Shown here: positions 1-50,951 of the stretch, in pieces
Numbering within the stretch: position 1 is the stretch's first letter
Layout of the letters: each line of letters starts with the position of its first letter
DNA from: Candidatus Buchananbacteria bacterium
Lineage (GTDB): Bacteria; Patescibacteriota; Patescibacteriia; 2-01-FULL-39-33
Direction: 5' to 3'
NCBI GenBank assembly: GCA_030650095.1
Contig: JAUSEE010000036.1
Coordinates: 6,490-70,489 of the forward strand
DNA length: 64,000 nt
The notes under the pieces: generated by a model
Seen by the model: only the letters and a program-made list of their open reading frames with translations
Told to the model about the DNA's origin: nothing
Databases searched by the model: none
Program-made: the position numbers and the translations under genes

Positions 1-48
1 CAATCTCCTAGATTGCTTCGTCGCCTTGCGGCTTCCTCGCAATGACAA
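1..48. repeat. Partial copy (3' arm) of the palindromic GTCATTGCGAG/CTCGCAATGAC repeat family, cut by the window edge
   Basis: Sequence gattgcttcgtcgccttgcggcttcctcgcaatgac matches the right arm of the repeats at 34832, 49693 and 51553. It lies inside the tgt reading frame. Confidence 0.6.
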
Positions 49-891: not shown

Positions 892-983
892 TATTTGATT
901 TTTTGCTGTTTTTAATCGACCAGCCCATCATAACACTGATAATTAAAATAGCCAAGTATCCCAAGCCTAAGATGTTGTTCATC

Positions 984-1778
984 TCACTCAGCTTGCTTTT
1001 TAAATACCAGGTCCTTGCTGGTGCCAAAACAAATAAAGAAACAAGGTTCCGAATATCGTTCCCGCCAATAAATATAGCCCTTTCTAAGCACCATTGTTCC
1101 AATAGAACATTCCGGACATTTTTTATCAGCGAATTCAGACCATTTGTCATTATTTATATCAAATTTGAATATTTTCGATTTTATTATCTGCGGTTGTTCG
1201 GAAAAATCATTTTCTAAAACATACAAAATGTCGTTATTTATGACAAAATCCGACCTATAAGGTCTTCTGGCAGAATCATAACCCGCGAGTTTAGCGCTGA
1301 AAATAAATTTGTCTTTAGAAAAAGATGTTTGCGTAAGTTTTCCTGTCATTTTATGGTATAAAATAAAATCTACTTGCAAACTATTTTCTGAATTGCATTC
1401 GAAGAACGGTATGTCGTCAAATTGGCTTGCTGACCCATAATCGCAGAAATAATAGACGATTATATAATTATTATCTTCAAATATCTTCGAAAATCTTTCA
1501 TTTATCGATCCCGGCGCGCTAAATAACGCGTATCTGCCATTTTGATCGAAAAAATCTACACCGCCAGAGAAGTTTGGCACGTAATAATAATTATCACTTA
1601 AGCCGAAGATCGGATTTTCATTATCAGCCGTCTGGATATCACTAAAAAAATTATTTCTTTCAATCTCCGTCATATTAACCTGTCCCGGATAACGAATATA
1701 ATCAGCAATCAGATGAAAAATGATAAATAATACAATTAGAATTAATATTAAAATTCCGAACAGACGAATAACTTTCAT
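984..1778 (-). CDS. Hypothetical membrane-anchored protein (N-terminal TM helix)
   Basis: The ORF runs 984-1829. The likely start is MKVIRLFGILILILIVLFIIF at 1778, a single hydrophobic N-terminal helix. I recognise no family. Confidence 0.5.
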   Translation of the reverse strand: MKVIRLFGILILILIVLFIIFHLIADYIRYPGQVNMTEIERNNFFSDIQTADNENPIFGLSDNYYYVPNFSGGVDFFDQNGRYALFSAPGSINERFSKIFEDNNYIIVYYFCDYGSASQFDDIPFFECNSENSLQVDFILYHKMTGKLTQTSFSKDKFIFSAKLAGYDSARRPYRSDFVINNDILYVLENDFSEQPQIIKSKIFKFDINNDKWSEFADKKCPECSIGTMVLRKGYIYWRERYSEPCFFICFGTSKDLVFKKQAE

Positions 1779-1788
1779 ATTTTTAAGA

Positions 1789-3828
1789 TTATTGAACGAT
1801 GCCCTTGGTCTGGCCCAAAATCGGGTCATCGAAAGCGGTGGTAATAGCCTTAACGCTGCTGTTTATCGTCGTACCGGTATTGGAATCTTTGGCTGACATA
1901 TTTATACTGGGAATAAGTATGAGTATCCTGCCCCTGTCACTAGTCGCCGGCTTTATACTGATATTAAAAGAAGCTAAAATCGGCTCGGAAGATTTCTTGA
2001 GCTTAGAAATATTCCAAATAGCTTCGCTCGTAGCGGCATTGTAAGAGAAATCACCGATATCATGGTTTTCTTTATTGGACCAAGAAACATTACTGGGCAA
2101 TTTAGCCACCACTTGTACATTTTCCACATCATGCAAATTGTTGGATAATTCTAAATAAATATTATAGGTTGACGATTCGCCCACTCTAGGCTCTATCGGG
2201 CCAAGACCTAGTGGAATATTGTCTTCATTGTAATATCTGGCGGCGACAGTAAGGCCCAGATCAGAATTGATAGAATTAACTATTGGCTTAGTCGTTACCG
2301 AAGATTCGCCGTTTAGCTCGCCCCCCTGGCTGGCTGTGGCGGAAGTGGAACTTTCAACGCTAAATTTGCCTATACTGGGGTCATTAACAGCCGAGGCGTC
2401 TTTAACTCTTATCTGCCAAGAAATATCACCTTCTTCACCGGCTCCCAATTTTAATAATTTGGATATGTGCCGTCCGGTCCAAATTATGGAATTACTACTG
2501 ATAACGCCATTGTTGTCATCTTGAAGCGTATTCCAGTCTAATATTTTTGAATCTAATTTAGCTTTGATTTGTATATTTTCTAAATTGTCCTCGCCGGTAT
2601 TTTTATAATGAATGGTATAAACCAACAAGTCGCCAAAATTAATGGATTGATCTTCAGCCGAGCCGTTAATGATGAGCTGCAAGCTTAATTGATCTTTGAT
2701 AACTTCGGTGATGAAAGTCTCTTCGCTTTGAGGATAATAATCATCTTTATATTTAAGAAGTATTCTGGCCACAAAATTGCGATTGCCACCTGTTTCAGCG
2801 GTGAGATAATTGCCTTTTATTTTTATCTCGCCTTTTTCACCAGCCTTTAACTCTTTTAAATCCCAAGTGTTATTGGTTTCATTGCTGGCTTTGCCTTCGG
2901 CTGATTCAAAAACAAATGACTCCGGATAATCAACAACCACTTGCAGATCGCTATAATCTTCATCTGATAGATTTTCATAATTCAAGGTATATTCAGCTTC
3001 CTGATTAGCCAAGATTTTTTCCGGGCCATTTACGGTTAAACTTAAGACAGAAGACGCCACCACCACATCAACGATTGTTTCCTGTTTGAAATTGGCATTT
3101 AGGTTTGAGGGCTTAAAATTTAAAACACCCCGAAAAGTTTGAGTGGAATTAATAGCAGCAATCATTTTGCCTTTTAATTCTATTTTTTGCGATTCGCCAA
3201 CCTTAAGCCCGCTAAAGCTCCATTTATTATTTTTATCGCCGCTGGCTTTTGGCAAAGAATCAATATGCTCAAAATTATCAGGGTAAAAAAGCTCCAATTC
3301 TAAATTATAAAGATCCACTTTTTCCTTGTTGGTTATGGTTAAGCTATAAATGCCTTCTTGTCCGGAAACTACAGTAATGGGAGTTTCCAATTTTAAAGTA
3401 ATGCGCTCATTGGTGAAATTATTTGTTTCTAATTTTGAAAAAACAAAAAAGCCCAAAATGGCCACAACCAGAAGAACAGAAAAAACGCCAATCAAAGAAT
3501 AAATAATGGTTTTCCAAAGAGGCCTTTCATTTTTTTCCAGTCTAGTCAAATCGGGAATCTCACCATCGCCATCAGTGTAAACTTCCGTCAGCTTCCTTCT
3601 CATATCCGTATCACTTTTGGAATTACCTGAGCTTTTCTTAAAATCAACCTGTTTGCCAAAACTACGATTCTTTTTGGAAATCAAACCAGCCAAATCATCT
3701 TGCATGGTGACAACCGGCTTTTTGGCTTTAGGCTTATTTTTTAATGAAACAACTTTTCCTTTTGAAGTTTGTGGCGATGAATTTAAAATTTCATCACCAG
3801 TTTCTGCTGGGTAATTTTGGACAGGCAT
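1789..3828 (-). CDS. Large membrane-anchored surface protein with repeated beta-rich extracellular domains
   Basis: 679-aa ORF with a charged N-terminal region, one TM helix (WKTIIYSLIGVFSVLLVVAILGFFVF), then repeated segments (…LELELFYPDNFEHIDSLPKAS / …LQVVVDYPESFVFESAEGKAS…) typical of CPR surface proteins. Confidence 0.55.
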   Translation of the reverse strand: MPVQNYPAETGDEILNSSPQTSKGKVVSLKNKPKAKKPVVTMQDDLAGLISKKNRSFGKQVDFKKSSGNSKSDTDMRRKLTEVYTDGDGEIPDLTRLEKNERPLWKTIIYSLIGVFSVLLVVAILGFFVFSKLETNNFTNERITLKLETPITVVSGQEGIYSLTITNKEKVDLYNLELELFYPDNFEHIDSLPKASGDKNNKWSFSGLKVGESQKIELKGKMIAAINSTQTFRGVLNFKPSNLNANFKQETIVDVVVASSVLSLTVNGPEKILANQEAEYTLNYENLSDEDYSDLQVVVDYPESFVFESAEGKASNETNNTWDLKELKAGEKGEIKIKGNYLTAETGGNRNFVARILLKYKDDYYPQSEETFITEVIKDQLSLQLIINGSAEDQSINFGDLLVYTIHYKNTGEDNLENIQIKAKLDSKILDWNTLQDDNNGVISSNSIIWTGRHISKLLKLGAGEEGDISWQIRVKDASAVNDPSIGKFSVESSTSATASQGGELNGESSVTTKPIVNSINSDLGLTVAARYYNEDNIPLGLGPIEPRVGESSTYNIYLELSNNLHDVENVQVVAKLPSNVSWSNKENHDIGDFSYNAATSEAIWNISKLKKSSEPILASFNISIKPATSDRGRILILIPSINMSAKDSNTGTTINSSVKAITTAFDDPILGQTKGIVQ

Positions 3829-3853
3829 GGTAATTATATATTAATAGTGTAAT

Positions 3854-6646
3854 TTAATTTTTAAGACCGATAAAATAAAATAAATCCTGCAATAAATCAT
3901 CTTTATAAACGCTTTCGCCGTTATTATTTTCAATTTTACTGGGATAAGAAACATTGGGAGAAACGCCATTTGGATATTCAACTTGGCCAAAGAACTTGTC
4001 ATTGTTGCTGCCGGCTTGTTTTTGAACCAGTAGGCTATAAGAGTCATAAGAATATTTAGGATAAAAAACGGCTTTTATCTTGCCTAAAATTCCCTTGGCT
4101 TCCACCTCTTTTTTGGTTAGATCAATTTTAAAAGGCAACTTATAAACCAATAAAATATCCTTATCTTCGCCCGGCTTAAGCGTCAGCCAATTGGCAAAAA
4201 CCGTTTTGTTGTTTTCGGTGTAAATTTTAGTTGAGCTGTCTGGATCAATTGTAGCCAGCTTTTCATTCAATAACCTTTCATCTTCTTCTAAATATTCATC
4301 AGGAGTTGTAAATTCGCTATCTTTGGGCCCCTTAAAACCTTCAGCCGAAATTAGCTGACTGCCTAACGGCACATAAACCCTAATAAAGCTTCTGTTGGGA
4401 GTGTCAGTAAAGATATTATCAATGGGGCCAAAATCACTTCTATGGATAACTAAACTATCCACCACCGAACCATCGGGAGAAATGGAGGCTTGATGATAAA
4501 TCTCCTGGTTGACCACCTCATCAGTTTTACCGCCGCCAATGTTGGTGGCTACCACGCTTAAATAATCCTTTTGAGCATTTTTCATCCGGCCGTCCCAATT
4601 ATTTTGAGCCACGAATGTCTGCTCGTTTTCATCTGTCATATAAATTTGAATGTCTTTTTCTTTCAAACCTTGGCTAAAAACAGAAACCAAGCCCAGCATC
4701 TTATCCGGAGTGACATCAAAAATATTTTCAATCAATTTAGGAGCCAAATCGCTTAATATTTTCTTGGGCTGTGTTTTATCATCCGCTTCCAATTCTATGC
4801 TTTTTTGGAGTTCCATTTCAAAATTGGCCGAGCTTATTGTTTTATTATAATCCGGCATTTCAATCGAGCCGATAACATCCAAGAGATTTCCCAGCCAATC
4901 AGAATTAATGGCAATTACCCCGTCGATAGTAGCGCCATCGCTTTTATTATAAAAATAAGTTATATTCTGCGCCGAGGTCGGCCAATTAGGCCACCAATTC
5001 GCATCTTGGAATTCCCAACGAGGATTGATTAGGGTTAGAGGCTCTGGCGCTTTGAGCAGTTTTGTAAAACCGGCTCTTAAATCGTAAGTTCCGCCGGCCG
5101 GCATGGTTACGCCTTCTAAATTGCCGTTTTTAAAATCAGCTACGGCCAAACTGCCCATAAATCCGCCGGTGGCCCTAAGCTCGTTATCATTTTGAAAAAC
5201 TATAAGATATTTTTTTAAACCATTATCACCCAAAAAATTTATGGCAAATTGCATCACTTCGTCGGACTTCTTTAGACTCTCTGTAAATTTTGGCAGATTC
5301 TCTTTTAACTTCAAGAATTTTTCCTGATTCTCTTGGGGCAAATGCTTGATATTTATTTTATCCAAATTTTCCTGAGCCGAAGTTATTTGAACTAAGGCTT
5401 CATGGCTACTGGCTTTAAAATTCTTGATTCTGGAAGACAGTGAAAAATCAGAATCAGCTGAAAATTCATTTAAGCCGGCAATTAAATATTCTCCGGCCTT
5501 AGTTAATTTTTCGCCTAAATCAAGCAAATTAGTTCCGCTTCTAAAAGTATTGTTTAAAGGGATAGTACCGGCCAAAACTGTTAAAAAAGATTTTATTTCT
5601 CCCAGCTGATCCTGGGCGGAAACAAAATTCTTATTGGCAGCAGCCAGATATTCTTCCGCTTCGCCCAGCTTAAAGTCGCTCAAAGCAGTCTGGGCTGATT
5701 CTAAGCTGGTTAAGGCTTCTTCGGCCGTGCCCAAAACCTGGCCTTTGGTTTCTTTGGCGCTTTCCAGATAAAAATAAGACCTAATCGGTATGGCTATCGC
5801 CAAGGCTATGGCCAAAAAAGCCAAAAGCGGCTTTAAAGACATTTTATCTATAGACCAAGCCGAAAATATTCGTTTAAAATCTAATTTCTTTTTTTCAGCC
5901 TTATATTTTACCGGCATTTCCTTAAGCGAAACTTTTTTTGGCGGAGGCGCAACCGGAATTTCTTTGGAGGTAAAATGAACAATTTCATCGCGCTTGGTGT
6001 ACCGACTTAACAAATTTAAGTAAGCGTAGCTGATCACTTGGCCAACAACCCAAAACATATTGCCCACCTTGGAGGCGAGAAAAACAACCAAATTTATAAC
6101 TGATATTTCTTGCCATAAATCAAGTTGGTTTATTTTATGCCCTTTTTTGGCTAACGGTATTTTAGGGGATAAATCAATTTTGTAAAAAGGCTTCTTAAGC
6201 CAGCGCATGGCTATGAGCCATGATTGTTTAAGAAAATTAAGTATCTCGCTTTCTTCCAAAGACAATAATTCAAAAACATGGATTTTCTCCAAAAACTCAC
6301 CCGCCGGCAAATCTTGATAGCTAAGATTAGAATTATTATCCAAAACCGGCTTAACCCGTTCTATATAACGCCTGGTTGATAGATTGAGCAAATGAGGAGA
6401 GGAATATTGATCCAGCGGGTGGCTGACTATGTTTATGCTGACAGAATTGCCCGAAGATAAGCTTATCGGAACATCAAAAAAATCATTTGATTTGGCATGA
6501 TCAAACATAACAACGCCTAGCGATTCATCGGGGCTGTTAAAAATCTTTTTAACTCGCTTTGATAATACCGCTTTTTTCTTCGCTAGCCTTTTCTTGACCT
6601 TGGTTTTTATGGTCTTTTTGGCTGCACTTTGTCTTTTGTGAGGCAT
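3854..6646 (-). CDS. Large membrane-anchored protein, possibly a DUF4012-like family member associated with polysaccharide loci
   Basis: 930-aa ORF with a Lys-rich N-terminus, a TM helix (LKPLLAFLAIALAIAIPI) and a large extracytoplasmic part containing ATGGFMGSLAVADFKNGNL. The DUF4012 assignment is from memory of the family and is uncertain. Confidence 0.5.
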   Translation of the reverse strand: MPHKRQSAAKKTIKTKVKKRLAKKKAVLSKRVKKIFNSPDESLGVVMFDHAKSNDFFDVPISLSSGNSVSINIVSHPLDQYSSPHLLNLSTRRYIERVKPVLDNNSNLSYQDLPAGEFLEKIHVFELLSLEESEILNFLKQSWLIAMRWLKKPFYKIDLSPKIPLAKKGHKINQLDLWQEISVINLVVFLASKVGNMFWVVGQVISYAYLNLLSRYTKRDEIVHFTSKEIPVAPPPKKVSLKEMPVKYKAEKKKLDFKRIFSAWSIDKMSLKPLLAFLAIALAIAIPIRSYFYLESAKETKGQVLGTAEEALTSLESAQTALSDFKLGEAEEYLAAANKNFVSAQDQLGEIKSFLTVLAGTIPLNNTFRSGTNLLDLGEKLTKAGEYLIAGLNEFSADSDFSLSSRIKNFKASSHEALVQITSAQENLDKINIKHLPQENQEKFLKLKENLPKFTESLKKSDEVMQFAINFLGDNGLKKYLIVFQNDNELRATGGFMGSLAVADFKNGNLEGVTMPAGGTYDLRAGFTKLLKAPEPLTLINPRWEFQDANWWPNWPTSAQNITYFYNKSDGATIDGVIAINSDWLGNLLDVIGSIEMPDYNKTISSANFEMELQKSIELEADDKTQPKKILSDLAPKLIENIFDVTPDKMLGLVSVFSQGLKEKDIQIYMTDENEQTFVAQNNWDGRMKNAQKDYLSVVATNIGGGKTDEVVNQEIYHQASISPDGSVVDSLVIHRSDFGPIDNIFTDTPNRSFIRVYVPLGSQLISAEGFKGPKDSEFTTPDEYLEEDERLLNEKLATIDPDSSTKIYTENNKTVFANWLTLKPGEDKDILLVYKLPFKIDLTKKEVEAKGILGKIKAVFYPKYSYDSYSLLVQKQAGSNNDKFFGQVEYPNGVSPNVSYPSKIENNNGESVYKDDLLQDLFYFIGLKN

Positions 6647-6752
6647 TACAAAATTGTTCTTCTGATTTAAGAAATTTTTCTCTTTAGATAAGTATTATTA
6701 TAACATAAACCGGCAAGTTGGAACAACTTAATTAAATATATCTGGGGATAAA

Positions 6753-6790
6753 AAAATAAACAGGCTTGTACCGCCTGTTTATGCTTTAAT
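6753..6790 (-). terminator. Rho-independent terminator downstream of the glycosyltransferase at 6799-7905
   Basis: Minus-strand hairpin aaacaggcggtacaagcctgttt followed by a T-run. Confidence 0.5.
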
Positions 6791-6798
6791 CTAAAAGG

Positions 6799-7905
6799 TT
6801 AAGATTCGTATTGCCCCAGGGTTTCTAAGGCGCATTTTTCCCAAGAATACTTTTTTAAATTGGCTTGGCCCTTAATTTTCAATGCTTGAAGAAGTTCTTG
6901 ATTATCTAAGGTATTAGAAATAGACTTAGCTATTTCAGTTTCATTTTCCGGATTAAAATAAACAACGCTATCGCCCAATATCTCCGGCAGGCAAGAGGCC
7001 GATGAGCTTAAAACCGGCAAGCCGTAGCTCTGGGCTTCCAACGGCGGCAAGCCAAAGCCTTCAATTAAACTTGGGAAAACATATAAAGCGGCAGTTTTAT
7101 AAAGACATGATAATTTTTCATCATCCAAATAACCGGTAAAGATAACTCGGCCGCTTAAACTTAGCGTTTGGGCGGTTTGTTCCAACCTCTCATAAAAATA
7201 ATTTTTCTGGCCCACCAAAACCAACTGGATGTCCCTATTCAGACTTTTAAACGCCTGGAGCAACTTTTCTAAATTCTTATGCGGATAAGCCGAGCCGACA
7301 TAAAGCAAGAAATCTTTTTTAATGCCCAAATCAGACTTTAGCCGGGCGCAATCAGCCTGGCCATCTTGGGGCAAACCAACCCCTTCATAGGTAACGCTTA
7401 TTTTTGAGGGATTTATTTTTAATAATTTTATAATGTCTTTTTTACTGCAGTCGGAAACAGTAATTATTTTCTTAGCTCTTTTGGCCGTATTGTTTACCAC
7501 TAAGCGATAAAAAAATAATTTTATCTTATACATTATCGGATTCAAGGTGGTGGCTCGGCTATGGGGATAATGGGAAATTATCAGATCATGAATGGTAACA
7601 ATAAACGGGCGCCGATAAAAAACAGGCGCATTAAAATGAGTAAAATGCATTAAATCAAGTTGGTATTTTTTCAACAGCCGCGGAAAAAATATTTGTTCTC
7701 CTAAGCTGTAAGCCCTGAAATCAGCCAAAACCTTTTTAAAATTTTTGCTTTGCGGCTGATAATCATTAAAATTATTTTGGGCCAAAAAAATAAAATACTG
7801 ATTTTTAGAATCAATTTTTTCCAATTGTTTGATTAGGTTTTCGCTGTAGCGTCCCAGACCGCCGTGTCTGGCGCCGTATAAGCGGGCGTCAATTCCTATG
7901 CGCAT
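6799..7905 (-). CDS. Glycosyltransferase family 4 (GT-B fold)
   Basis: 368 aa with the C-terminal GT4 signature EGFGLPPLEAQSYGLPVLSS. Confidence 0.8.
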   Translation of the reverse strand: MRIGIDARLYGARHGGLGRYSENLIKQLEKIDSKNQYFIFLAQNNFNDYQPQSKNFKKVLADFRAYSLGEQIFFPRLLKKYQLDLMHFTHFNAPVFYRRPFIVTIHDLIISHYPHSRATTLNPIMYKIKLFFYRLVVNNTAKRAKKIITVSDCSKKDIIKLLKINPSKISVTYEGVGLPQDGQADCARLKSDLGIKKDFLLYVGSAYPHKNLEKLLQAFKSLNRDIQLVLVGQKNYFYERLEQTAQTLSLSGRVIFTGYLDDEKLSCLYKTAALYVFPSLIEGFGLPPLEAQSYGLPVLSSSASCLPEILGDSVVYFNPENETEIAKSISNTLDNQELLQALKIKGQANLKKYSWEKCALETLGQYES

Positions 7906-8015
7906 ACCTTGATTTTAAACCTTGACAAAAAAGTTATTTTATGATAAGTTACATTATCAGTATATAGTTTAATCAGAACTTTAACAACATTTACAACCAG
8001 AAAGAGGAAAATAAC

Positions 8016-8207
8016 ATGGGTGTCATTAATATGATATTTTCCGTTATTTGTGTATTTTTGGCTTTAATGTCATATTCAAAACTTACTCCAGACGAATCAT
8101 TAGTCCAGAACAAGATGTATTTTTTAATACTAGCATCTATTTTGTTTTCACTTTGGGCTATATCTCATAAAATTGATTATCTTATTAAAGAAATCAGAAA
8201 GAAATAG
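8016..8207 (+). CDS. Small hydrophobic membrane peptide (63 aa)
   Basis: Shine-Dalgarno sequence agaggaaaataac precedes the ATG. One or two predicted TM helices. Confidence 0.4.
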   Translation: MGVINMIFSVICVFLALMSYSKLTPDESLVQNKMYFLILASILFSLWAISHKIDYLIKEIRKK

Positions 8208-34923: not shown

Positions 34924-36129
34924 TTATTTCATATTTAAAGCTCCGGGGCGCAAAACAGTTATCCGGCCTGATACCACTTTAATCAAAGCTGATAGCTGGC
35001 TTACTACTTTCCCCTGGTCAATATAAAAATCAACATTATTGCTAAAATATCTTTTGGCTTGCTTGATGGTTAGGGCTGGCTCCTGGCCTTCAGGATTAGC
35101 GCTGGGCGCTACCAAGGGACCGGTTTTTTTAAGCAGCGCCATAAGCCAACTATTATTGGGCCATCTGAAAGCCAGCGAATCGGTGCCCCGATGAAGATAG
35201 GATAATTTTTTGTCGCAATTTAAAATAATGCTCACCGGCCCCGGCCAGTATTTTTTTATGATTTTTTCGGTCGGCTGATCGATTTTTACGCCGAATTTTT
35301 TTAAGTCAGCCAAAGAACTGATTAAAATTATAAAAGGCTTATCCGGATTTCTCTTTCTAATCTTATAAATCCTTCCTACCGCCTTTTTATCCCAAGCTCG
35401 CCCGACTAAGCCGTAAATGGTATCGGTGGGAATAATGCCAACACCGCCTTTTTTTAGAATATCAATTCTTTGAGCCAAATATTTTTTAGCCAAGGCTTCC
35501 AAACTTATAGCTTGGTTAATCTTAAAATTTCCAACTCTGGTTCTTTTTAAACTGGACATATAAGCACCCGTTGATAAGCTTGTACCTATATCCCTAGCCA
35601 ATGATCTGATGTAAACTCCCGGGCCGGTAACAACTTTTATTTTAAGATCGGGCCATTTGTATTTTAAAATTTTAAGGCTCTTAATTTCCACCGGCCGAGA
35701 TTTTAATTCCACCGGCCGGCCGGACCGGGCTAATTTGTAAGCCCGCTCCCCGCCAAGCCTAATGGCGCTGTAAGCCGGCGGAACCTGGCTAATTGTACCG
35801 ATAAAATTTTTAACAACACTATTAATCTCCTTAAGAGTTATAGGCCGTACATTAGGCGTTTTATTCTTTCGGCCTTCGCTGTCATCAGTGCTGCTGGATA
35901 AGCCCAGTTTGATGCCCGCAATATATTCTTTTTCTTTTTCAACTATTTGGCTTAATTTTTTAGTGGCTTCCCGGCCCAAACCGACCACTAAAACGCCCTC
36001 GGCCAAAGGATCCAAAGTGCCGGCATGGCCCACACTCGGCTCGCCGGTGGATTTTTTTATTTTATTTATAATACCAAAAGAACTTATTCTTTTAGGCTTA
36101 CTGATGGTAAAAATATTGACTGCTTTCAT
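34924..36129 (-). CDS. Fusion protein: TruB-like tRNA pseudouridine(55) synthase catalytic domain (N-terminal) joined to a TsaC/YrdC/Sua5-like L-threonylcarbamoyladenylate synthase domain (C-terminal)
   Basis: N-terminal half: GHAGTLDPLAEGVLVVGLG, YIAGIKLGLSSSTDDSEG and ISQVPPAYSAIRLGGERAY, which are TruB motifs. C-terminal half: KKGGVGIIPTDTIYGLVGRAWDKKAVGRIYKIRKRNPDKPFIILISS, the YrdC signature. No PUA domain. Confidence 0.7.
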   Translation of the reverse strand: MKAVNIFTISKPKRISSFGIINKIKKSTGEPSVGHAGTLDPLAEGVLVVGLGREATKKLSQIVEKEKEYIAGIKLGLSSSTDDSEGRKNKTPNVRPITLKEINSVVKNFIGTISQVPPAYSAIRLGGERAYKLARSGRPVELKSRPVEIKSLKILKYKWPDLKIKVVTGPGVYIRSLARDIGTSLSTGAYMSSLKRTRVGNFKINQAISLEALAKKYLAQRIDILKKGGVGIIPTDTIYGLVGRAWDKKAVGRIYKIRKRNPDKPFIILISSLADLKKFGVKIDQPTEKIIKKYWPGPVSIILNCDKKLSYLHRGTDSLAFRWPNNSWLMALLKKTGPLVAPSANPEGQEPALTIKQAKRYFSNNVDFYIDQGKVVSQLSALIKVVSGRITVLRPGALNMK

Positions 36130-36518: not shown

Positions 36519-36953
36519 ATGAGAGACGACTGCTGTCCCGATTTGGATGTTTGCGATTGCGATTGCCATAGATTTCCAGGTATGATGCATTGCATGCCTT
36601 GTTGCAATACTTGCCCCAAGTGCGGCAAGAATATCAGGGTTTTCTCCTATGATGAGCATGTTAAAAAATGCGAAGCCGTAGCCAATGATTTTAGTCTAGA
36701 ATTATTTAAGAAGTTTGAAAAGGAGTTGGAAATTTGCCATTGCCCTTGCCACTCCGGGCCAAGTGTTAAGCACATTATGCCTTGTTGCCTTAAATGCCCC
36801 CATTGCGGTAAAAATATCAAGACTTTGTATTACAGCGAACACATTGAACAATGCCGGCCGGATGATTGTTTGACTGGACTAAAAGAAGAAGAACTGGAAG
36901 CCAGAGAAAAACAATTAGAAGCCTGGGGAAAAATTATATCAGACGAAAAATAA
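36519..36953 (+). CDS. Cys-rich protein (144 aa) with two copies of the same module (MPCCNTCPKCGKNIRVFSYDEHVKKC and MPCCLKCPHCGKNIKTLYYSEHIEQC)
   Basis: Shine-Dalgarno sequence aaaagagg. 22 Cys/His residues in the N-terminal 100 aa. Acidic coiled C-terminal tail. Terminator hairpin at 36955-36990. Confidence 0.6.
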   Translation: MRDDCCPDLDVCDCDCHRFPGMMHCMPCCNTCPKCGKNIRVFSYDEHVKKCEAVANDFSLELFKKFEKELEICHCPCHSGPSVKHIMPCCLKCPHCGKNIKTLYYSEHIEQCRPDDCLTGLKEEELEAREKQLEAWGKIISDEK

Positions 36954-44217: not shown

Positions 44218-44651
44218 TAAAAATTAAACATTTCATCACTCAAATCCCTCCACGTAGGATTTAAAGTTTTAATTAAATTTTGCTTCTTTTCTCTTCGCCA
44301 TTTTTTGAGTTGTTTCTCCCTAGCCAGTGCTTCACCAATATCCGTATTGTATTCATAAATGAACCCGACCTCGCTCTAAAGAGCGAGGTATCTGGGCGGT
44401 TTCAAATGGAAGGTGTCGGCTCCGCCGACATATTTCTCCTCACACTGCCCTTCATCCCCTGGCTTAAAAGCCAGGGGTATTCGGGCAGCAACATTATAAA
44501 CTAATTTTTTACAATCATATTTTTTAGTAAAACCATCAATCAATTTTTGTTTATGCTCCCAAATCCTCTTTTCTAAATTATTAGTAATACCTATGTACAA
44601 AGTGCCACTCTCACTAGCCATGATGTAAATATAATAATATTTATTATTCAT
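44218..44651 (-). pseudogene. Small GIY-YIG nuclease-family gene interrupted by an in-frame insertion of about 141 bp carrying a TAG stop
   Basis: N-terminal GIY-YIG (YYYIYIMASESGTLYIGITNNLEKRIWEHKQ…GFTKKYDCKKLVY). Then an insert containing the hairpins cccctggcttttaagccagggg and acctcgctctttagagcgaggt and an in-frame TAG. Then the frame resumes with the canonical C-terminus EYNTDIGEALAREKQLKKWRREKKQNLIKTLNPTWRDLSDEMFNF. The supplied ORF (44376-44651) stops inside the insert. Confidence 0.6.
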
Positions 44652-44891: not shown

Positions 44892-45461
44892 TTAAAGTGC
44901 CAAAATTTCAGCGATGGCAGCGAGCTTGCCGGCTTCATCAACTGGGAAAGCGATGCCATTAACCAAAATCGCCAGCAATTCATCCTGATCGGTAGAAAGC
45001 TCTACATCAATTTCGTCTCCGTTGCCGACCAAATCCTGCAAATTGGCGTCCTCTTCGTCAACCGTGACAGAAATTACGCTATCCGGATCAATGCCGACAA
45101 CATCGCGAAGAATGTTGGCAATGGTATCTGGAGTTTCCAAAGCATAATCTTGGCCATTGACCGTGCAAGTAAGCACACCGGAGCCATCATTACCCTTGAT
45201 CTTGGTGATAATCAAAATGACATCTCCATTACAAAGTGGCGTGGTCTTGATGCTGCCGACATAGCCCTTGTCCGGATCAATTTCTGCAACATTGGAAAAC
45301 ATCTTTTTATTCACGCGGACTTCTCGGCCGCCAGTCAATGCAACCCACTCAACTTCTGGCTTAATTTCTTCGGCCTTGACAGCCACATCCATAACCGTGC
45401 CACCATCAGGAACGGTAACGTCAAGAATTGGACCTGGAACAACCATAATCTGCACGTTCAT
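44892..45461 (-). CDS. Ubiquitin-like protein with two ThiS/MoaD-type beta-grasp domains and a C-terminal tail of about 20 aa after a conserved Gly (candidate BilA-like Ubl)
   Basis: Shine-Dalgarno sequence acaggagaagcagaaATG. Domain 2 (LTCTVNGQDYALETPDTIANILRDVVGIDPDSVISVTV…LVGNGDEIDVE…LLAILVNG) fits the ThiS/MoaD/Ub beta-grasp pattern. Domain 1 (VQIMVVPG…TVMDVAV…LCNGDVILIITKIKG) is similar. The tail IAFPVDEAGKLAAIAEILAL follows the putative terminal Gly. Confidence 0.55.
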   Translation of the reverse strand: MNVQIMVVPGPILDVTVPDGGTVMDVAVKAEEIKPEVEWVALTGGREVRVNKKMFSNVAEIDPDKGYVGSIKTTPLCNGDVILIITKIKGNDGSGVLTCTVNGQDYALETPDTIANILRDVVGIDPDSVISVTVDEEDANLQDLVGNGDEIDVELSTDQDELLAILVNGIAFPVDEAGKLAAIAEILAL

Positions 45462-45517: not shown

Positions 45518-46213
45518 CTAATCTGAGGCAACTCCGTCACCGATAATCACCATCGGACGAGCGCAGACAATCAACTCCTTTTGATAATCCTCGCCATTAA
45601 ACCATTTAATCAGCTTCCAAACTGCTACGGAAGCAATATAGGAAACAGTGGGTGAAATAGACCTGTTAGTGCAAGGCGATTCCTCCGCTTCTTCGTCGCT
45701 ATAAAGTGTACTTTCCCACATCCGAATATCGGAGAGGTTCGATGGTAGAATAGCATAAACCCGGCCGTTGTCAATGGCCATTCTGGTTTCTACCATAAAT
45801 TTAACCGGCAACTTGAATTTTAGAGCGCCGTCCCAAATATCACGGCGTATATCCATGGAATCAACCATTAAGAAAATTACGCCTTTTAATTTGGAATTGG
45901 CGGTTACCGCTTCATTATGAGCGGTAATTCCTATGCCGGTAGCTTCCAAGATTATTTCCTGCAAAGCCTCAACCTTGGGCCGGCCGACATCTTTCAGGCG
46001 ATAAACCTGGTTAGGCAAATTATGATCTTCAACTTCGTCAAAGTCATAAACATGGATATCTTGGACGCCCATCTTAGCCAGGAGATAAGCCACATAACTG
46101 CCGGTGGCTCCGACTCCGATAACATGGACTTCATCTTGGAATTTACCTGGGTCAAACAAATCCAATTGCCGCCAATAATCAACCCTGACAATTTCTTGTT
46201 CTTGATTTGCCAT
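45518..46213 (-). CDS. E1-like adenylyltransferase (ThiF/MoeB/UBA family)
   Basis: Nucleotide-binding motif VHVIGVGATGSYVAYLLAKMGVQDIHVYDFDEVEDHNLPNQ, the E1/ThiF Rossmann signature. Cys-containing catalytic region (…EESPCTN…). Start at MANQEQE (46213) or at an upstream Met (46246) that overlaps the JAB gene. Confidence 0.7.
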   Translation of the reverse strand: MANQEQEIVRVDYWRQLDLFDPGKFQDEVHVIGVGATGSYVAYLLAKMGVQDIHVYDFDEVEDHNLPNQVYRLKDVGRPKVEALQEIILEATGIGITAHNEAVTANSKLKGVIFLMVDSMDIRRDIWDGALKFKLPVKFMVETRMAIDNGRVYAILPSNLSDIRMWESTLYSDEEAEESPCTNRSISPTVSYIASVAVWKLIKWFNGEDYQKELIVCARPMVIIGDGVASD

Positions 46214-46220
46214 ATCTTCA

Positions 46221-47126
46221 TTATTCCAAGGAAGCCCAGATGCCATCCCATTCTCGAACAATATCAAATTCAGCTGGCGGAGAGAAATTGCCATTACTGT
46301 CCTCTGCCGGAACAAGATCGCCTTCGGTTAAGGCCTCTTCTTGTCCCTCTGAATTACCTTCATGAAAAACATGTCTGCCCTTCCGGCGAGTGTAGACTGG
46401 AGACTCTTGTCCCTTTCTATGCCAACGATACATCGGTTGTCCGGGAGCTGGCCCAGAAGACAGACTCTTAATAACTGCCTGTTGATATTGATAATTAGGA
46501 ACTGTCTGAATAAAAACCTCTCTGGAAACTTTTTCCGCCACTTGAGCTTGCCAATATTCCTGCCTTTGAGCGTCAACAGGAGTGTAAATCTGCCAAGGAA
46601 TATCATGCCAAACAACCCCGCGCTTATAATCAAACAAGGAAAATTCAGCCCGGCCACCGCGTCCGAAAATGCCGCGCAGAAACCACTCATTGTGGCTGAA
46701 GAGCTTCATTTGATCATTATCTTGCGATGACGCATCAGTGGAATTGCTCGGATGGACATGGCCCCAAAACAAAATACTGGAGCAAAGTTCCGGATTTTCC
46801 CTGGCTAAATCAGTAAACAAATCAGCCAAGCCGTCTTCGGTCATTTCCGTGGTAGCACCGTGGACTGTCTGATTGATCAAGAAAATCTGTTCTATTAAAA
46901 ACTCATACTCGGCCAAAATCCTGACACTGCCCAGCCAGCCGATTTCATCACTGCCGCTTAATTGGGCGATAGCGAGCATATCGCTGTAGGCTTCGGGTTT
47001 GATAAGAACTTTGGGAATTGATTTTTGGGAAATAGTTGTTTGTCTGGGCTCGAATGGATGGGGAGAGAATGCCTCCGCTCCCGAAGATTTATATTGAGTT
47101 GACGCAACATAAGGATGTTGATGCAT
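46221..47126 (-). CDS. JAB/JAMM (MPN+) metalloprotease, candidate deubiquitinase-like peptidase
   Basis: Exact JAMM motif E-x(n)-HVHPSNSTDASSQD, that is H-x-H-x7-S-x2-D. The start codon overlaps the upstream stop (TGATG). Shine-Dalgarno sequence aaggag 9 nt upstream. Confidence 0.75.
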   Translation of the reverse strand: MHQHPYVASTQYKSSGAEAFSPHPFEPRQTTISQKSIPKVLIKPEAYSDMLAIAQLSGSDEIGWLGSVRILAEYEFLIEQIFLINQTVHGATTEMTEDGLADLFTDLARENPELCSSILFWGHVHPSNSTDASSQDNDQMKLFSHNEWFLRGIFGRGGRAEFSLFDYKRGVVWHDIPWQIYTPVDAQRQEYWQAQVAEKVSREVFIQTVPNYQYQQAVIKSLSSGPAPGQPMYRWHRKGQESPVYTRRKGRHVFHEGNSEGQEEALTEGDLVPAEDSNGNFSPPAEFDIVREWDGIWASLE

Positions 47127-49483
47127 CACTGGGCTAACTCCTTTTTGGTTTTTTCTACCGCCGTCCAATACTTAAATATTTCACTGCCAGCCAGATCATC
47201 CAAATTGACAGTTTCCAAATATTGAATCGCTAGTGAAGTTATGGCCGCAAACTGATATTCGGCGATAAGCTGGGCAATCATTTCTTGAATATTGCCCAAA
47301 CACGGCTCGCCCCTAGAATTAACATGGGGATGGTTAATGTTATAACCATTATAACCGCCGGCGGCCTGCCTGGTGGTATTGAAAAAAAGAAGGCCGCCAT
47401 TAGCACCATCCAAAAATATTTCTATGCGGAATTTGCCGATATCAAAAGTGAATTCTTTACCGGCTTTGTCCTTGCAAGTAATGTAAATATTGTAAGTGTG
47501 CACAATCAGCTTGCCATCCTTGGCCGTAACATTTTCCACTCCTTCAATATCAAAAAGACGATTATACTCGGTCTCAAAACCGGTTTTATCACTGGCTGTA
47601 ATATTTTTCAAAATCTTCAATTTCTGCTGCGCCTCTTTTTCTTGGCGTATTTTATTGACTAATTCTTTCTGTAAAGCGGCAACCGCCTTAGTCCATTCAG
47701 TAATAGACCTACTTAGATCGAGGCTGGCCCTTTCCTGCCTATCTTGGCAGAGGTTAACATAGCCGTCCATCGCCCTTCGGCGACGAATTTCTTTAATCGC
47801 CTTATCGCGCTCAATTTTTTCTGCCGGTGTCTTATTCAGCTCTATTACCGTTAATTCCAAAATACGACGATAAATATCAATCCCACCACTCATTTCCCTA
47901 TAGCCCAAGGGGATATAAATATACAAATTATGGTCCAATAACTCCGCTACGGTAAAAAGCGATTCGCTATCTATAATTTCCACACCCATGTCGATTGGTT
48001 TAAAATACTGCCAACCATAACGACTATTATTAGTACTAAAGCCGAAAATTTTGTCCGGCATATCAACTTTGTCCGATAAAGTATTATTAGCTGGTGCGGC
48101 ATGTAGCCAAATATGGAATAAATTATCATTAATAGGCTGAAACATTTTTCTAAGTCCTTGACAATTATGACAAATAATTTTCTTATTTAAAACCGGCAAA
48201 AGAATGTTCTCGGTCTCGGTTTTCATTTTAGCCATATTACCGACACGGTTAGAATTATTGAAAATAACCACCTGAGGAGCATTAATCAAAGCCAATCTTT
48301 CCTCGGAGCTCAATTTAAATATATTAGCTGTTTCCTCTAGTACCTTTTCCAAAATGGCATAATCATCTGATCTGTCCTTATGGACAGCATCATGGAAAAT
48401 ATAAAGATTATTGCCAATAACCTCGGCTACCGCATAACCCTCTGTTTCTGCTATAACTATGCCCAAACCAGAGGGCAAATAAGACCCATCGGCACAACCA
48501 ATCCTATGACCCCACATTATTGGCGGAGTTTCAACTTCACAATTGCCAGAGGGAGCCGACCAGATATTAATATGCAGAAATCTGCCAGCTTTGTCATCGG
48601 GGATAGGCTCAAAAAGATGTTGGTGAGGCACCCTAACTATGGCGCCATGAAAAATTTCTCTCGGCAATATTCGCTCAATAATGTCTTTCAATTTATCTTG
48701 CACCATTTCGCCATCCCAACTTTTAAAGATAATATCCATCGGCAAAAGCTTTCGCGCTTCTTCAACACTAGCAGCCAAAAGAACAGGCAAATATTTTTTG
48801 ATCTGCTGACTTATTGCCCGGCCATAAACTTCATCCGGACAATTAGGAATTTTTCTAAAACAAATCAGGCGTTTGGTTGGGTAATATTCAATATCAAGCA
48901 ACAAATCACAATCAGTTGTTAATTCGGCTTCAGCCATATTCAAAAATCTGCCCAAAACTATATTGAGCTGATCTGTAACTGGGCTAATACTTAATGTATC
49001 GTCTACAAGACCTTCATGGAAAACAATTTTTTTAACACCGCTGGCCTCAGTTAAAATATCCCTGTATAAATCAGGATAATACTGGGGCGAGAAATGTCTC
49101 ATAACATTGTTTAATAATTGCGCCCAATGATCGCATCTGGTGCCCTTGGGTTTGGAAACTGTCAGATCGGGGTATTGTATTTTTACTTCCTCCACGGGAG
49201 TTTCTTCTGCTATTTCATCAGCCACTTCTTCATCTTCAAATACTGAGAAATCAAAATTAACAGTATTGGAAGGTGCCACTGCCAATTTTACTATACCGGG
49301 AATACTGGTTTCGCTATGTTCAAAAACATCAAAGCCCAAAATACCCAAAGCGTTAACAATATTATTTTGCTCAAAAACCAAACCATTCCAGCCATCAATT
49401 TCCATTTTTACAAAAGATATTTGAGCCACTATGAGTTTTTTTTGCTTTTTATTAGAGACATCTGCAATAAAGAAATTACGCAT
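47126..49483 (-). CDS. Large protein (785 aa) with a C-terminal E2/UBC-like domain, plus about 600 aa of unassigned N-terminal sequence and a coiled-coil
   Basis: Shine-Dalgarno sequence aaaggagaaaactATG. The C-terminus …GYNGYNINHPHVNSRGEPCLGNIQEMIAQL… matches the E2 catalytic signature HPN-x3/4-G-x-[IP]-C-L. First gene of a four-gene operon with translational coupling. Confidence 0.65.
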   Translation of the reverse strand: MRNFFIADVSNKKQKKLIVAQISFVKMEIDGWNGLVFEQNNIVNALGILGFDVFEHSETSIPGIVKLAVAPSNTVNFDFSVFEDEEVADEIAEETPVEEVKIQYPDLTVSKPKGTRCDHWAQLLNNVMRHFSPQYYPDLYRDILTEASGVKKIVFHEGLVDDTLSISPVTDQLNIVLGRFLNMAEAELTTDCDLLLDIEYYPTKRLICFRKIPNCPDEVYGRAISQQIKKYLPVLLAASVEEARKLLPMDIIFKSWDGEMVQDKLKDIIERILPREIFHGAIVRVPHQHLFEPIPDDKAGRFLHINIWSAPSGNCEVETPPIMWGHRIGCADGSYLPSGLGIVIAETEGYAVAEVIGNNLYIFHDAVHKDRSDDYAILEKVLEETANIFKLSSEERLALINAPQVVIFNNSNRVGNMAKMKTETENILLPVLNKKIICHNCQGLRKMFQPINDNLFHIWLHAAPANNTLSDKVDMPDKIFGFSTNNSRYGWQYFKPIDMGVEIIDSESLFTVAELLDHNLYIYIPLGYREMSGGIDIYRRILELTVIELNKTPAEKIERDKAIKEIRRRRAMDGYVNLCQDRQERASLDLSRSITEWTKAVAALQKELVNKIRQEKEAQQKLKILKNITASDKTGFETEYNRLFDIEGVENVTAKDGKLIVHTYNIYITCKDKAGKEFTFDIGKFRIEIFLDGANGGLLFFNTTRQAAGGYNGYNINHPHVNSRGEPCLGNIQEMIAQLIAEYQFAAITSLAIQYLETVNLDDLAGSEIFKYWTAVEKTKKELAQ

Positions 49484-49692
49484 GAGTTTTCTCCTTTTGG
49501 CTGTTTTTATGCCCTAGAACCATTGTTCTAAAACTTTTTTGGTTGTCAATGATCTATCTCCTCTTAAACAAAAAGAGGAAAGGCTAAAAAGACAAAATTT
49601 GCCTGTTTAGCTTTTCCTCCTGATTTGAAATTATGTAACTCTTTACTCTAACAAAATAGGTGATTTATGTCAACCAAAAAATATGTTTTTCT

Positions 49693-49771
49693 GTCATTGC
49701 GAGCATAGCGAAGCAATCCCATTTAATCAAATACGGGATTGCTTCAGTCGCTTAAGCTCCTTCGCAATGAC
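49693..49771. repeat. Palindromic repeat element (GTCATTGCGAGcatagcgaagcaatccc …spacer… gggattgcttcag…CTTCGCAATGAC)
   Basis: 79-bp composite inverted repeat at the upstream boundary of the Ubl/E1/JAB/E2 island. Confidence 0.65.
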
Positions 49772-49802
49772 AATTATTGTTATATTTTATCTAATTTAAA
49801 AC

Positions 49803-49856: not shown

Positions 49857-50330
49857 CTATTCTACAATCAGCTGGCCAAACATGCCATTGGCTCGATGCT
49901 GGCCGACACTGCAATAATACTCAAATGTTCCGGCCTGGTCGGCTATAAACTCCACCGTCTTAGATTCTCCGGCTTTTATTTGTCCGGTATTAACGCTAAA
50001 CTCATCTATTAAAAAGTCGTGAAAACCTTCTTGATTGATGAAAACAATTTTCACCTTGTCGCCCTTTTTAACTTTCATTTCTTTCAAAGAGAAAGAATAA
50101 TTGGCGCCCGAAACCGTAAACTCCTTAACCGCCGGTGCTGTCTGGCTGCTATTTAAATTGGTGTCCGGAGTTTCATTATTTGTATTATTATTTTCATTAA
50201 TTATGTTTTGGGACATTGCTTGAGAACCACCTTCAATCGGGCCATTATATGGTCGTTTGTAGAAATAAAAAGCACCAGCCAAGATTATAATAATTACAAT
50301 GATCATTAACAATATTTTGTTTTTTGACAT
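49857..50330 (-). CDS. Membrane-anchored cupredoxin (type-1 copper protein, plastocyanin/azurin-like)
   Basis: N-terminal TM helix. Copper ligands are in the typical arrangement: H (GFHDF), C (YYCSVGQH), H and M (NGMFG). Confidence 0.75.
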   Translation of the reverse strand: MSKNKILLMIIVIIIILAGAFYFYKRPYNGPIEGGSQAMSQNIINENNNTNNETPDTNLNSSQTAPAVKEFTVSGANYSFSLKEMKVKKGDKVKIVFINQEGFHDFLIDEFSVNTGQIKAGESKTVEFIADQAGTFEYYCSVGQHRANGMFGQLIVE

Positions 50331-50348: not shown

Positions 50349-50951
50349 CTATTTTATATTTTTATAATACTCATTAACCTGCTCCCAATTGATAACCTTA
50401 AAAAAGGCTTCAATGTATTCCGGTCGGCGGTTTTGATATTTTAAATAATAAGCGTGTTCCCAAATATCCAAACATAAAATAGGACTCTGGCCGCTACTTA
50501 TGGGAGTGTCTTGATTGGGGGTGGTTATTATTTCCAAATCGCCGCCACTTTTAACCAGCCAAGACCAGCCGCTGCCGAATAATTTTAAAGAGGCATCCGT
50601 AAATTGTTTTTTAAATTCTTCAAAACTGCCGAACTTGTCATTGATGCCTTGGGCTATTTCTCCCGCGCAAGGAACATCTTTTTTTAGCACTTGCCAAAAC
50701 ATAGCGTGATTTAGAGCTCCGCCGCCACTGTTTCTAACAGCGGTTCTTATTTCTTCTGGAATGTCACTAAGATTTTTTAGCAGATCTTCCAACGGCTTGT
50801 TTTGCAGATCTTCATATTTTTCCAAAGCCGTATTCAATTTGTCTACGTAGCCGACATAATGTTTGCCGTGGTGTATTTCCATGGTTTTTTGATCAATAAA
50901 CGGCTCCAAGGCATCATAAGAATAGGGCAATTCTTCCGGTGTGTATTTCAT
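50349..50951 (-). CDS. sodA: Fe/Mn superoxide dismutase
   Basis: …YSYDALEPFIDQKTMEIHHGKHY… plus the C-terminal DxWEHAYY motif. Confidence 0.9.
   Translation of the reverse strand: MKYTPEELPYSYDALEPFIDQKTMEIHHGKHYVGYVDKLNTALEKYEDLQNKPLEDLLKNLSDIPEEIRTAVRNSGGGALNHAMFWQVLKKDVPCAGEIAQGINDKFGSFEEFKKQFTDASLKLFGSGWSWLVKSGGDLEIITTPNQDTPISSGQSPILCLDIWEHAYYLKYQNRRPEYIEAFFKVINWEQVNEYYKNIK

Follow-up and report, generated by a model that had tools for sequence, protein, structure and literature searches.

Bacterial ubiquitin-like conjugation, represented by type II cyclic oligonucleotide-based antiphage signalling systems (CBASS), Bil and Bub, has become an active field only recently, and target choice in its E3-less systems is an open question. 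Bil operons lack an E3, and their E2 proteins have been proposed to recognise targets directly (PMC11601596, PMC10557695). Here we describe a four-gene operon of ubiquitin-like conjugation genes in a 64,000-nucleotide stretch of contig JAUSEE010000036.1 from Candidatus Buchananbacteria bacterium (hereafter the window). Its first gene encodes a 785-amino-acid (aa) E2-like protein in which a modular, folded arm of about 630 residues precedes the UBC-like domain. We rate the operon as a new family of bacterial ubiquitin-like conjugation systems in which orphan domains, arranged in a variable array, are attached to the E2. The compact operon, read from the minus strand, consists of the following genes (window coordinates):

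47126..49483, minus strand: multidomain E2-like protein, 785 aa; an uninterrupted open reading frame (ORF) from an ATG start to a stop codon at 47126-47128
46221..47126, minus strand: JAMM/JAB peptidase, 301 aa; ATG at 47126; E...HVHPSNSTDASSQD fits the HxHx7Sx2D motif
45518..46213, minus strand: short ThiF-type E1, 231 aa; ATG at 46213; Pfam ThiF E = 2.7e-23
44892..45461, minus strand: ubiquitin-like protein (Ubl) precursor, 189 aa; weak ThiS matches; the beta-grasp ends in KIKGN at aa 87-91

The stop codon of the E2-like gene and the start codon of the JAMM gene overlap by one base (TGATG). The four genes occur in the same order in 10 further loci (L001-L003, L006-L009 and L011-L013), while in L010 the first three are visible before the available stretch ends. 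In the window Ubl, KIKGN is followed by about 100 residues, including a second ThiS-like segment (aa 99-153) and a C-terminal helix common to L001 and L006, which implies maturation by a peptidase. Ubl homologs share '(K/R)(I/V)xGN' with an invariant Asn after the Gly, and the L002 homolog stops exactly at ...SGN.

Bil types I and II have the same four components, i.e. a Ubl (BilA), a cysteine E2 (BilB), a JAMM/JAB peptidase (BilC) and an E1 (BilD). They also resemble this operon in having a Ubl with residues beyond the conserved Gly, for which maturation by a peptidase is implied, and in the absence of an E3. However, Bil genes are arranged as Ubl-E2-JAB-E1, whereas the order here is E2-JAB-E1-Ubl. 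In contrast to the Bil E1, which is built as IAD-AAD-CYS with an N-terminal PF14459 domain, the E1 proteins of the window and the related loci are single ThiF domains of 230-265 aa (about 230 aa in the window). In the window E1, a GxGxxG loop is present and the S-(P/A/V)-C loop holds a conserved Cys; there is neither a second adenylation domain nor a Cys domain. Unlike its Bil counterpart, the E2-like protein has a 630-aa modular arm and keeps Pro-His at the HPN position. The genomic contexts are of the housekeeping type rather than defence islands, and the hosts belong to Patescibacteria, also known as the candidate phyla radiation (CPR), instead of Proteobacteria. No PADLOC model matches the E2-like protein, and the JAMM peptidase has a weak, generic JAB match (E = 0.006). 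Judged by its components, the system would work like Bil, yet it lacks the Bil-defining features tested, namely the multidomain E1, the gene order and recognition by hidden Markov models (HMMs).

The E1 also relates the operon to type II CBASS (Cap2/Cap3) and 6A-MBL systems. It is similar to the adenylation domain in PADLOC 'E1-E2' models (best E = 5.6e-13; the best 25 of 31 PADLOC matches are all CBASS 'E1-E2' models) and to the NCBIfam model 6A-MBL cap2_3 (E = 8e-12), and the operon shares a JAB partner with these systems. Their proteins are E2-E1(-JAB) fusions, whereas this operon encodes E1 and E2 as separate proteins along with a dedicated Ubl and has no gene for a CD-NTase or a metallo-beta-lactamase. 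Bub (6E/DUF6527) is similar in being a bacterial Ubl/E1/E2 cassette with structurally diverse Ubls. In contrast to Bub, which forms Ser/Tyr oxyesters, has no catalytic cysteines and uses a DUF6527 protease (PMC11601596), this operon has an E2 Cys conserved in 96% of homologs, a conserved E1 Cys and a JAMM peptidase. The operon family is absent from the 2006 census of 6a-6e systems (PMC1779556), and we found no description of it in the literature searched on CPR/Patescibacteria and ubiquitin-like conjugation.

The E2-like domain and its modular arm

The domains of the E2-like protein, from the N-terminus, are as follows:

49238..49483, minus strand: N-domain, aa 1-82; predicted beta-alpha-beta-beta-alpha-beta-beta
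49172..49237, minus strand: acidic linker, aa 83-104
48743..49171, minus strand: 'ins' module, aa 105-247; alpha/beta, specific to a subfamily
48278..48742, minus strand: repeat R1 ('type A'), aa 248-402; compact alpha/beta domain
47828..48277, minus strand: repeat R2 ('type B'), aa 403-552; the same module as R1
47594..47827, minus strand: long helix, aa 553-630 (continuous over 553-627 in the AlphaFold2 model); Lys+Arg 19, Asp+Glu 12
47129..47593, minus strand: E2/UBC-like catalytic domain, aa 631-785, with H720 and C728; the most conserved part of the protein

The same protein sequence is recorded at NCBI as a 'hypothetical protein' from a metagenome-assembled genome (MAG) of Candidatus Buchananbacteria. 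Since AGGAG lies 8 nucleotides 5' of the ATG and homologs open with the same M-x-N-(F/Y)-F, the start codon, and hence the N-terminal extension, is real. An earlier note on this DNA had described an extension of about 600 aa and a UBC-like motif at residues about 690-720. The extension proved to be real, conserved and, by prediction, folded; its length is about 630 aa, because the motif HPHVNSRGEPCLG occupies residues 718-730 (HPHVNSRGEPC at 718-728). All four segments quoted in that note are present in the protein (CDHW... at aa 117-131, VRVPHQH... at 283-335, ICHNCQG... at 437-448 and the basic helix at 561-626).

The C-terminal domain, in agreement with the earlier note, is probably an E2, to judge from conserved sequence and profile alignment. 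Among 89 full-length homologs, P719 is conserved in 100%, H720 and G725 in 97% each, and C728 in 96%. The arrangement H718-P719-H720...C728 corresponds to the E2 pattern of an HPN-type loop followed by the catalytic Cys about 8 residues later; the classical first His of HPN (H718 in the window) is Ala in most family members. An HHalign comparison of a 182-sequence alignment of this domain with four canonical E2s gave a probability of 73% (E = 3e-5, 118 columns), with Pro-His aligned to Pro-Asn of HPN and the conserved Cys to Cys85 of UBE2D2. The UBE2L3 segment of the canonical set agrees with the PDB match. When compared with PDB sequences, the profile of the domain reached only E about 1, with almost all matches being E2s (UBE2L3, Ubc4); the register sets GkFRIEI...PHV..G.pC of the domain on GAFRIEI...HPNI..G.vC of the E2s. 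E2s also appear in the weak Foldseek list of the full-length model, and the secondary structure predicted by AlphaFold2 is compatible with a UBC fold. Pfam UQ_con and Prok-E2_A-E matched none of 39 family members.

The full-length AlphaFold2 model, built on the 89-sequence alignment, has a mean predicted local distance difference test (pLDDT) score of 88.9 and a predicted template modelling (pTM) score of 0.63. Values of pLDDT below 50 occur only at aa 85-99 and 624-630, and the former, within the acidic linker, is the sole clearly low-confidence stretch of the extension. The N-domain, modelled with pLDDT of 94-98, is present family-wide, and its F5, G34 and G63 are conserved in at least 83% of sequences. 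R1 and R2 are copies of one module of about 150 aa, which was first exposed by aligning the first three homologs. They match each other directly (residues 267-398 vs 422-558, 26% identity, E = 3e-9), and with E values from 1e-10 to 1e-42 a profile of these two copies alone detected four copies in family protein P0003, two in P0002 and two in P0004. Modelled alone, R1 reached a pLDDT of 95 and a pTM of 0.90. The conserved surface residues of the repeat include G341 (95%), E354 (86%) and Y361 (84%), and R2 keeps the near-invariant G500, E514, L520 and Y521.

The 'ins' module was found in 11 of the 177 family proteins sampled, and C117 and C215 occur together in 6 of 9 copies. In the AlphaFold2 model its secondary-structure elements are ordered as in the repeat. 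This likeness rests solely on that order, since no sequence relation between the two could be detected (HHalign 11%). The proposals that 'ins' is a degenerate repeat, or that the repeat is a copy of the E2, were therefore rejected, with HHalign probabilities of at most 11%.

No relative of these modules was recovered from the databases. Searches with the 785-aa sequence alone were without meaningful result in Pfam (to E = 10), NCBIfam, PADLOC and PHROGs, and so was phmmer against PDB. Likewise, 51 repeats, 32 type-A repeats and 27 N-domains had no relative in Pfam, NCBIfam, PADLOC, PHROGs or PDB, and the type-A-only and N-domain profiles had zero PDB matches even at E <= 10. A Foldseek search with R1 produced no significant match (best E = 0.17 in PDB and 0.11 in BFVD). 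The repeat, the N-domain and 'ins' are candidates for new folds or families.

The long helix corresponds to what the earlier note called a basic coiled-coil. A single basic helix of 75 residues is indeed predicted, whereas the heptad signal is weak (0.55 hydrophobic a/d positions in the best register vs 0.37 background). Y575 (91%), C579 (91%) and R582 (81%) are conserved at positions i, i+4 and i+7, i.e. on one face, together with Q605 and R613; this conserved Y-C-R face indicates that the helix is more than a spacer. The motif Y575-x3-C579-x2-R582 (aa 575-582) lies at 47738-47761 of the window, minus strand. Besides Cys728 of the E2 domain, C579 is a second conserved cysteine; it precedes Cys728 by 149 residues and could belong to a contact face for the E1 or the E2 domain, act as a redox switch or take part in a relay.

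Size and architecture of the family

An exhaustive HMM search over 1.84 billion cluster representatives (clusters at 50% identity) assigned 3,046 representatives to the family at E <= 1e-3 and 713 at E <= 1e-30. This corrected a word-indexed homolog search, which had given a misleadingly low number of three relatives. A word-indexed search with the repeat alignment found nothing, but was uninformative because known carriers were missed as well. The census of architectures covered 177 proteins, namely the 150 best matches and 27 matches to the C-terminal domain. One repeat was found in 105 of these proteins, two in 33, three in 6, four in 1 and five in 1. The common form, of about 445 aa, consists of the N-domain, one repeat, the helix and the C-terminal domain. 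Hence the figure of 150-250 aa that the earlier note gave for E2s in such operons applies relative to other systems but not within this family, where the usual form already carries an N-domain, one repeat and the long helix, and the window protein is an expanded member. Many of the apparently short family matches are fragments that start inside a repeat. At the other extreme are a repeat-less member of 244 aa (P0007) and a stand-alone C-terminal domain of 159 aa encoded by a complete ORF (P0028).

The identities between the window protein and five increasingly distant orthologs of the same architecture decrease from 73 to 41% in the E2 domain, from 51 to 28% in the N-domain, from 51 to 24% in R1, from 54 to 30% in R2 and from 42 to 21% in the helix. 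The 'ins' module is the fastest-diverging folded part (38 to 22%). The catalytic end is constrained and the arm is variable.

Two related loci show further arrangements. In L011 (positions 5431-6474), from a Candidatus Saccharibacteria MAG, an 'ins'-type module stands directly before the helix and the C-terminal domain, and both the N-domain and the repeat are missing, so 'ins' can take the place of the repeat. Locus L004 (JGI 3300013136, Ga0172370_10002165, positions 2-8160) contains six E2-like paralogs in a row on one strand, around one JAB-like gene, one ThiF E1 gene and one Ubl gene; three of the paralogs have the C-terminal domain only, and three have an N-domain and a repeat (plus C-terminal domain). 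The JAB-like protein of this locus has FWGCATS without the HxH histidines and is probably inactive.

The five named genomes are MAGs of Buchananbacteria, Moranbacteria, Parcubacteria and Saccharibacteria and one MAG labelled Gammaproteobacteria. A phage or plasmid origin was considered and rejected, as IMG/VR (pattern scan), INPHARED phages and PLSDB plasmids (both tblastn) contained no relatives. The operon family appears to be large; it occupies ordinary chromosomal surroundings in CPR bacteria with small genomes and is invisible to Pfam, NCBIfam, PADLOC and PHROGs.

Possible roles of the arm

The reading that we tentatively prefer is that the arm is a built-in adaptor which recognises targets or partners in cis, as in an E2/E3 hybrid. 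In this reading, the JAMM peptidase would trim the Ubl after the conserved Gly of '...GN', and the E1 would adenylate the Ubl and hand it to Cys728 of the E2 domain. The arm would then do the job of an E3 by keeping the charged E2 domain close to a target or to a partner through which the target is defined, while the long helix would oligomerise the E2-like protein or dock it on a dimeric E1. The absence of an E3 gene from the operon suggests that the arm supplies this function. Three features of the array fit a specificity module, namely between 0 and 5 copies per protein, a divergence faster than that of the E2 domain, and the sharing of one E1/Ubl set by paralogs whose arms differ. The earlier note had listed a substrate-recognition (E3-like) module or an effector domain among its suggestions, which is in line with the adaptor reading; the evidence is indirect. 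UBE2O and BIRC6 are eukaryotic E2/E3 hybrids, large proteins that join a UBC domain to substrate-binding regions. The likeness is one of analogy only: in them, too, a UBC domain, either C-terminal or internal, is carried by a large folded body without catalytic function, and no separate E3 is needed, but their arms have no sequence relation or detectable fold relation to the one described here. The adaptor reading also agrees with the direct target recognition proposed for Bil E2s (PMC11601596, PMC10557695). As the E2 is joined to a variable array of orphan domains, target choice becomes directly testable by swapping or deleting modules.

A different role, which we consider unlikely, is that of an enzyme domain, formed by the type-A repeat R1, whose active site would be metal-dependent or of the Cys330/His/Asp type. 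Such a domain might act as an E3-like relay, passing the Ubl from Cys728 to Cys579 and/or Cys330 and then to the target, or as a second peptidase, isopeptidase or amidase on the Ubl; type-B copies like R2 would be inactivated paralogs. R1 carries the complete constellation P286-H287, W308-S309, C330-x-D332, E354 and H364-D365-x-x-H368, whereas R2 has Gln, Asn, Ile and Tyr at the four His/Cys/His/His columns. Comparison with homologs showed that H287, C330, H364 and H368 co-vary as one set. All four are present in 55 of 193 repeats, whereas independence would predict 8.3 (none of 10,000 shuffles reached 55), and all four are absent from 70, against 16.5 expected. Among carriers, residues on which the selection was not based are also conserved: P286, W308 and D365 are invariant, and S309, D332 and E354 are kept in at least 90%. 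Moreover, in the AlphaFold models H287, W308/S309 and H364/D365 each lie just after a beta-strand, the usual place of active sites in alpha/beta enzymes, and the helix contributes C579 as a third conserved cysteine.

The only recurring, if weak, Foldseek neighbours of the repeat are class-I glutamine amidotransferases (HisH, Pdx2, GMP synthase and viral CTP synthase), which have a Cys-His-Glu triad, and caspases; as in these domains, a conserved Cys and His follow beta-strands. However, every fold match is insignificant (E >= 0.11, template modelling (TM) score <= 0.42). For the amidotransferases, the matches of R1 have TM scores of 0.31-0.42 and root-mean-square deviations of 8-10 A, the repeat is about 50 residues smaller, and most copies lack the Cys/His set. 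With TM > 0.5 expected for a true relative and no sequence-profile match, the assignment of the repeat to class-I glutamine amidotransferases was rejected. An HExxH-like reading of H364-D-x-x-H368 was likewise abandoned, as the model puts the motif in a loop rather than a helix and no zincins were matched.

The distribution of the set also speaks against catalysis. The set is absent from 70 of the 193 repeats, P0003 lacks it in each of its four copies, and 40 of the 41 helix-proximal copies are without it, so it is not essential to the cascade. Part of the co-occurrence reflects common descent of one repeat subclass, the tandem arrangement, with up to five copies, is typical of binding modules, and four protein ligands (His3Cys) are more in keeping with a metal site of structural than of catalytic function. 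The earlier note had pointed to multiple Cys/His-containing segments, and about one-third of that claim stands: H287 and C330 of VRVPH...GCAD belong to the co-varying set, whereas the ICHNC cysteines of R2 occur in 2% of homologs, and the Cys and His of CDHW in 'ins' occur in 32-40% of a small subfamily and are not conserved family-wide. Across the 89 full-length homologs, the only Cys/His conserved throughout the family are C579, H720 and C728. The conservation pattern suggests that the site in the VRVPH...GCAD segment of R1 is real and conserved, serving either metal binding or catalysis; in the adaptor reading, the His/Cys/His/His cluster would most simply be a metal-binding site that stabilises or tunes the module. 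Together with the Tyr-Cys-Arg face of the helix, it offers concrete targets for mutagenesis.

We consider it equally unlikely that the arm selects no targets and is an assembly and regulatory scaffold, in which the N-domain and the helix dock the E2 on an E1 homodimer and/or bind the Ubl non-covalently, with the repeats serving as spacers or as an auto-inhibitory or self-modified region. Such docking would suit an E1 that is a bare ThiF domain without an E2-recruiting (ubiquitin-fold) domain, and no part of the arm is conserved more widely than the N-domain and the Y-C-R face. The pTM of the full-length model suggests some defined packing between domains, and the type II BilB E2 forms homodimers (PMC10557695). 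However, docking does not strictly need the arm, as shown by the stand-alone C-terminal domain of P0028 and by the L011 member without an N-domain. A spacer role would also leave unexplained the conserved repeat surface residues G341, E354 and Y361 and the diversification of the L004 paralogs.

A more far-reaching combination of these ideas is improbable. The family would be a self-contained E2/E3 hybrid, a previously undescribed and chromosomally stable system found so far mainly in Patescibacteria (CPR). Its type-A repeat would represent a new catalytic or metal-dependent ligase/isopeptidase fold, C330, C579 and C728 would make up a thioester relay to targets, and the system would have a housekeeping or stress role rather than one in phage defence. 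The last element is suggested by the neighbouring genes, which are repeatedly those for superoxide dismutase (SOD), peroxiredoxin, Fe-S assembly and DNA repair.

The earlier note had also suggested that the N-terminal modules are inactive copies of E2, ubiquitin E2 variant (UEV) or RWD domains, which we now regard as very improbable. The order of helix, beta-strands, loop, beta-strands and helix loosely recalls the alpha+beta layout of UBC/RWD domains, and there is precedent in the RWD-like inactive E2 domains encoded by bacterial 6e/Bub operons (PMC1779556). However, in comparison with canonical E2s the HHalign probabilities were below 1% throughout (0.4% for the repeat, 0.3% for 'ins' and 0.6% for the N-domain), as opposed to 73% for the C-terminal domain, and reached about 1% with the family's own E2 domain. 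With isolated R1, no E2, UEV or RWD domain was among the first 50 Foldseek matches listed, though the PDB copy holds many E2s. A resemblance between the C-E-H-H order of the repeat and the type II BilB motif was dropped, since the spacing is 39 residues here and 14 in BilB and there is no structural match. Some relatives do contain degenerate E2 copies, but these form a second C-terminal domain, which the window protein lacks. Two C-terminal UBC-like domains were observed in P0046, P0065, P0066, P0071, P0073, P0078 and P0081. In five of these (P0065, P0066, P0071, P0078 and P0081) the internal domain keeps PH...C, while the last has no His and often no Cys (APQV..GRAF, APLV..GRAL), so by their sequences these are predicted pairs of one active and one UEV-like domain.

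Finally, the chance that mis-assembly or mis-calling has fused two genes into the 785-aa ORF, or that the extension is a disordered, low-complexity leader, is negligible. The earlier note had named these two possibilities as refuting its observation, and nothing was found in their favour: the ORF runs without interruption, the same multidomain architecture recurs in independent assemblies from different samples (L001, L007, P0032, P0034 and P0051), pLDDT averages 88.9 and is at least 70 at 729 of 785 residues, and the L008 ortholog shows what a true disruption looks like. In L008 (Candidatus Buchananbacteria RIFCSPLOWO2_01_FULL_39_33, positions 3821-6510) the ortholog is encoded by two overlapping ORFs, N-domain-ins-ins-repeat followed by repeat-C-domain, which reflects either a frameshift or sequencing error or a truly split gene.

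Genomic surroundings and other ORFs in the window

The signals flanking the operon are as follows:

49673-49645 and 49549-49522, minus strand: two promoter-like sites upstream of the E2-like ORF (TTGACA-17-TAGAGT with TG, and TTGACA-16-AACAAT), both matches to consensus only
44852-44832, minus strand: terminator-like hairpin of 8 pairs (6 G-C) with a T-run directly 3' of the Ubl gene, closing the four-gene operon

Between the terminator of the cupredoxin gene and the promoter-like sites lies a nested inverted repeat (49685-49780, minus strand). The hairpin has a folding energy of -39.2 kcal/mol (z = -6.4; 0 of 200 shuffles as stable). It matched no Rfam family at the gathering score, the best being Leu_leader on the opposite strand with 30 bits against a threshold of 50. 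Just 3' of the operon terminator, a 91-aa ORF (44376-44651, minus strand) encodes a GIY-YIG domain (Pfam E = 1.5e-9); it is not conserved beside the cassette in the other loci.

The flanking genes are of the housekeeping type, with SOD/cupredoxin and uvrB in the window and L001, infC-rpmI-rplT in L012, and Suf, ferredoxin, SOD and peroxiredoxin genes in L013. SOD was seen beside or near the cassette in the window (50349-50951, 49857-50330), in the syntenic L001 (4596-5607) and in the distantly related L013 (12428-14871). The proximity of SOD, peroxiredoxin and Suf genes possibly reflects a redox or stress link, or else chance in small genomes.

Two further ORFs of the window were noted by eye. 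A 144-aa ORF (36519-36953, plus strand) contains two Cys/His-rich copies, ...HCMPCCNTCPKCGKNI... and ...HIMPCCLKCPHCGKNI..., which look like a duplicated zinc-binding motif. A 401-aa ORF (34924-36129, minus strand) may be a fusion, its N-terminal half resembling TruB (tRNA pseudouridine synthase) and its C-terminal half a YrdC/Sua5-type domain (...IPTDTIYGLVG...).

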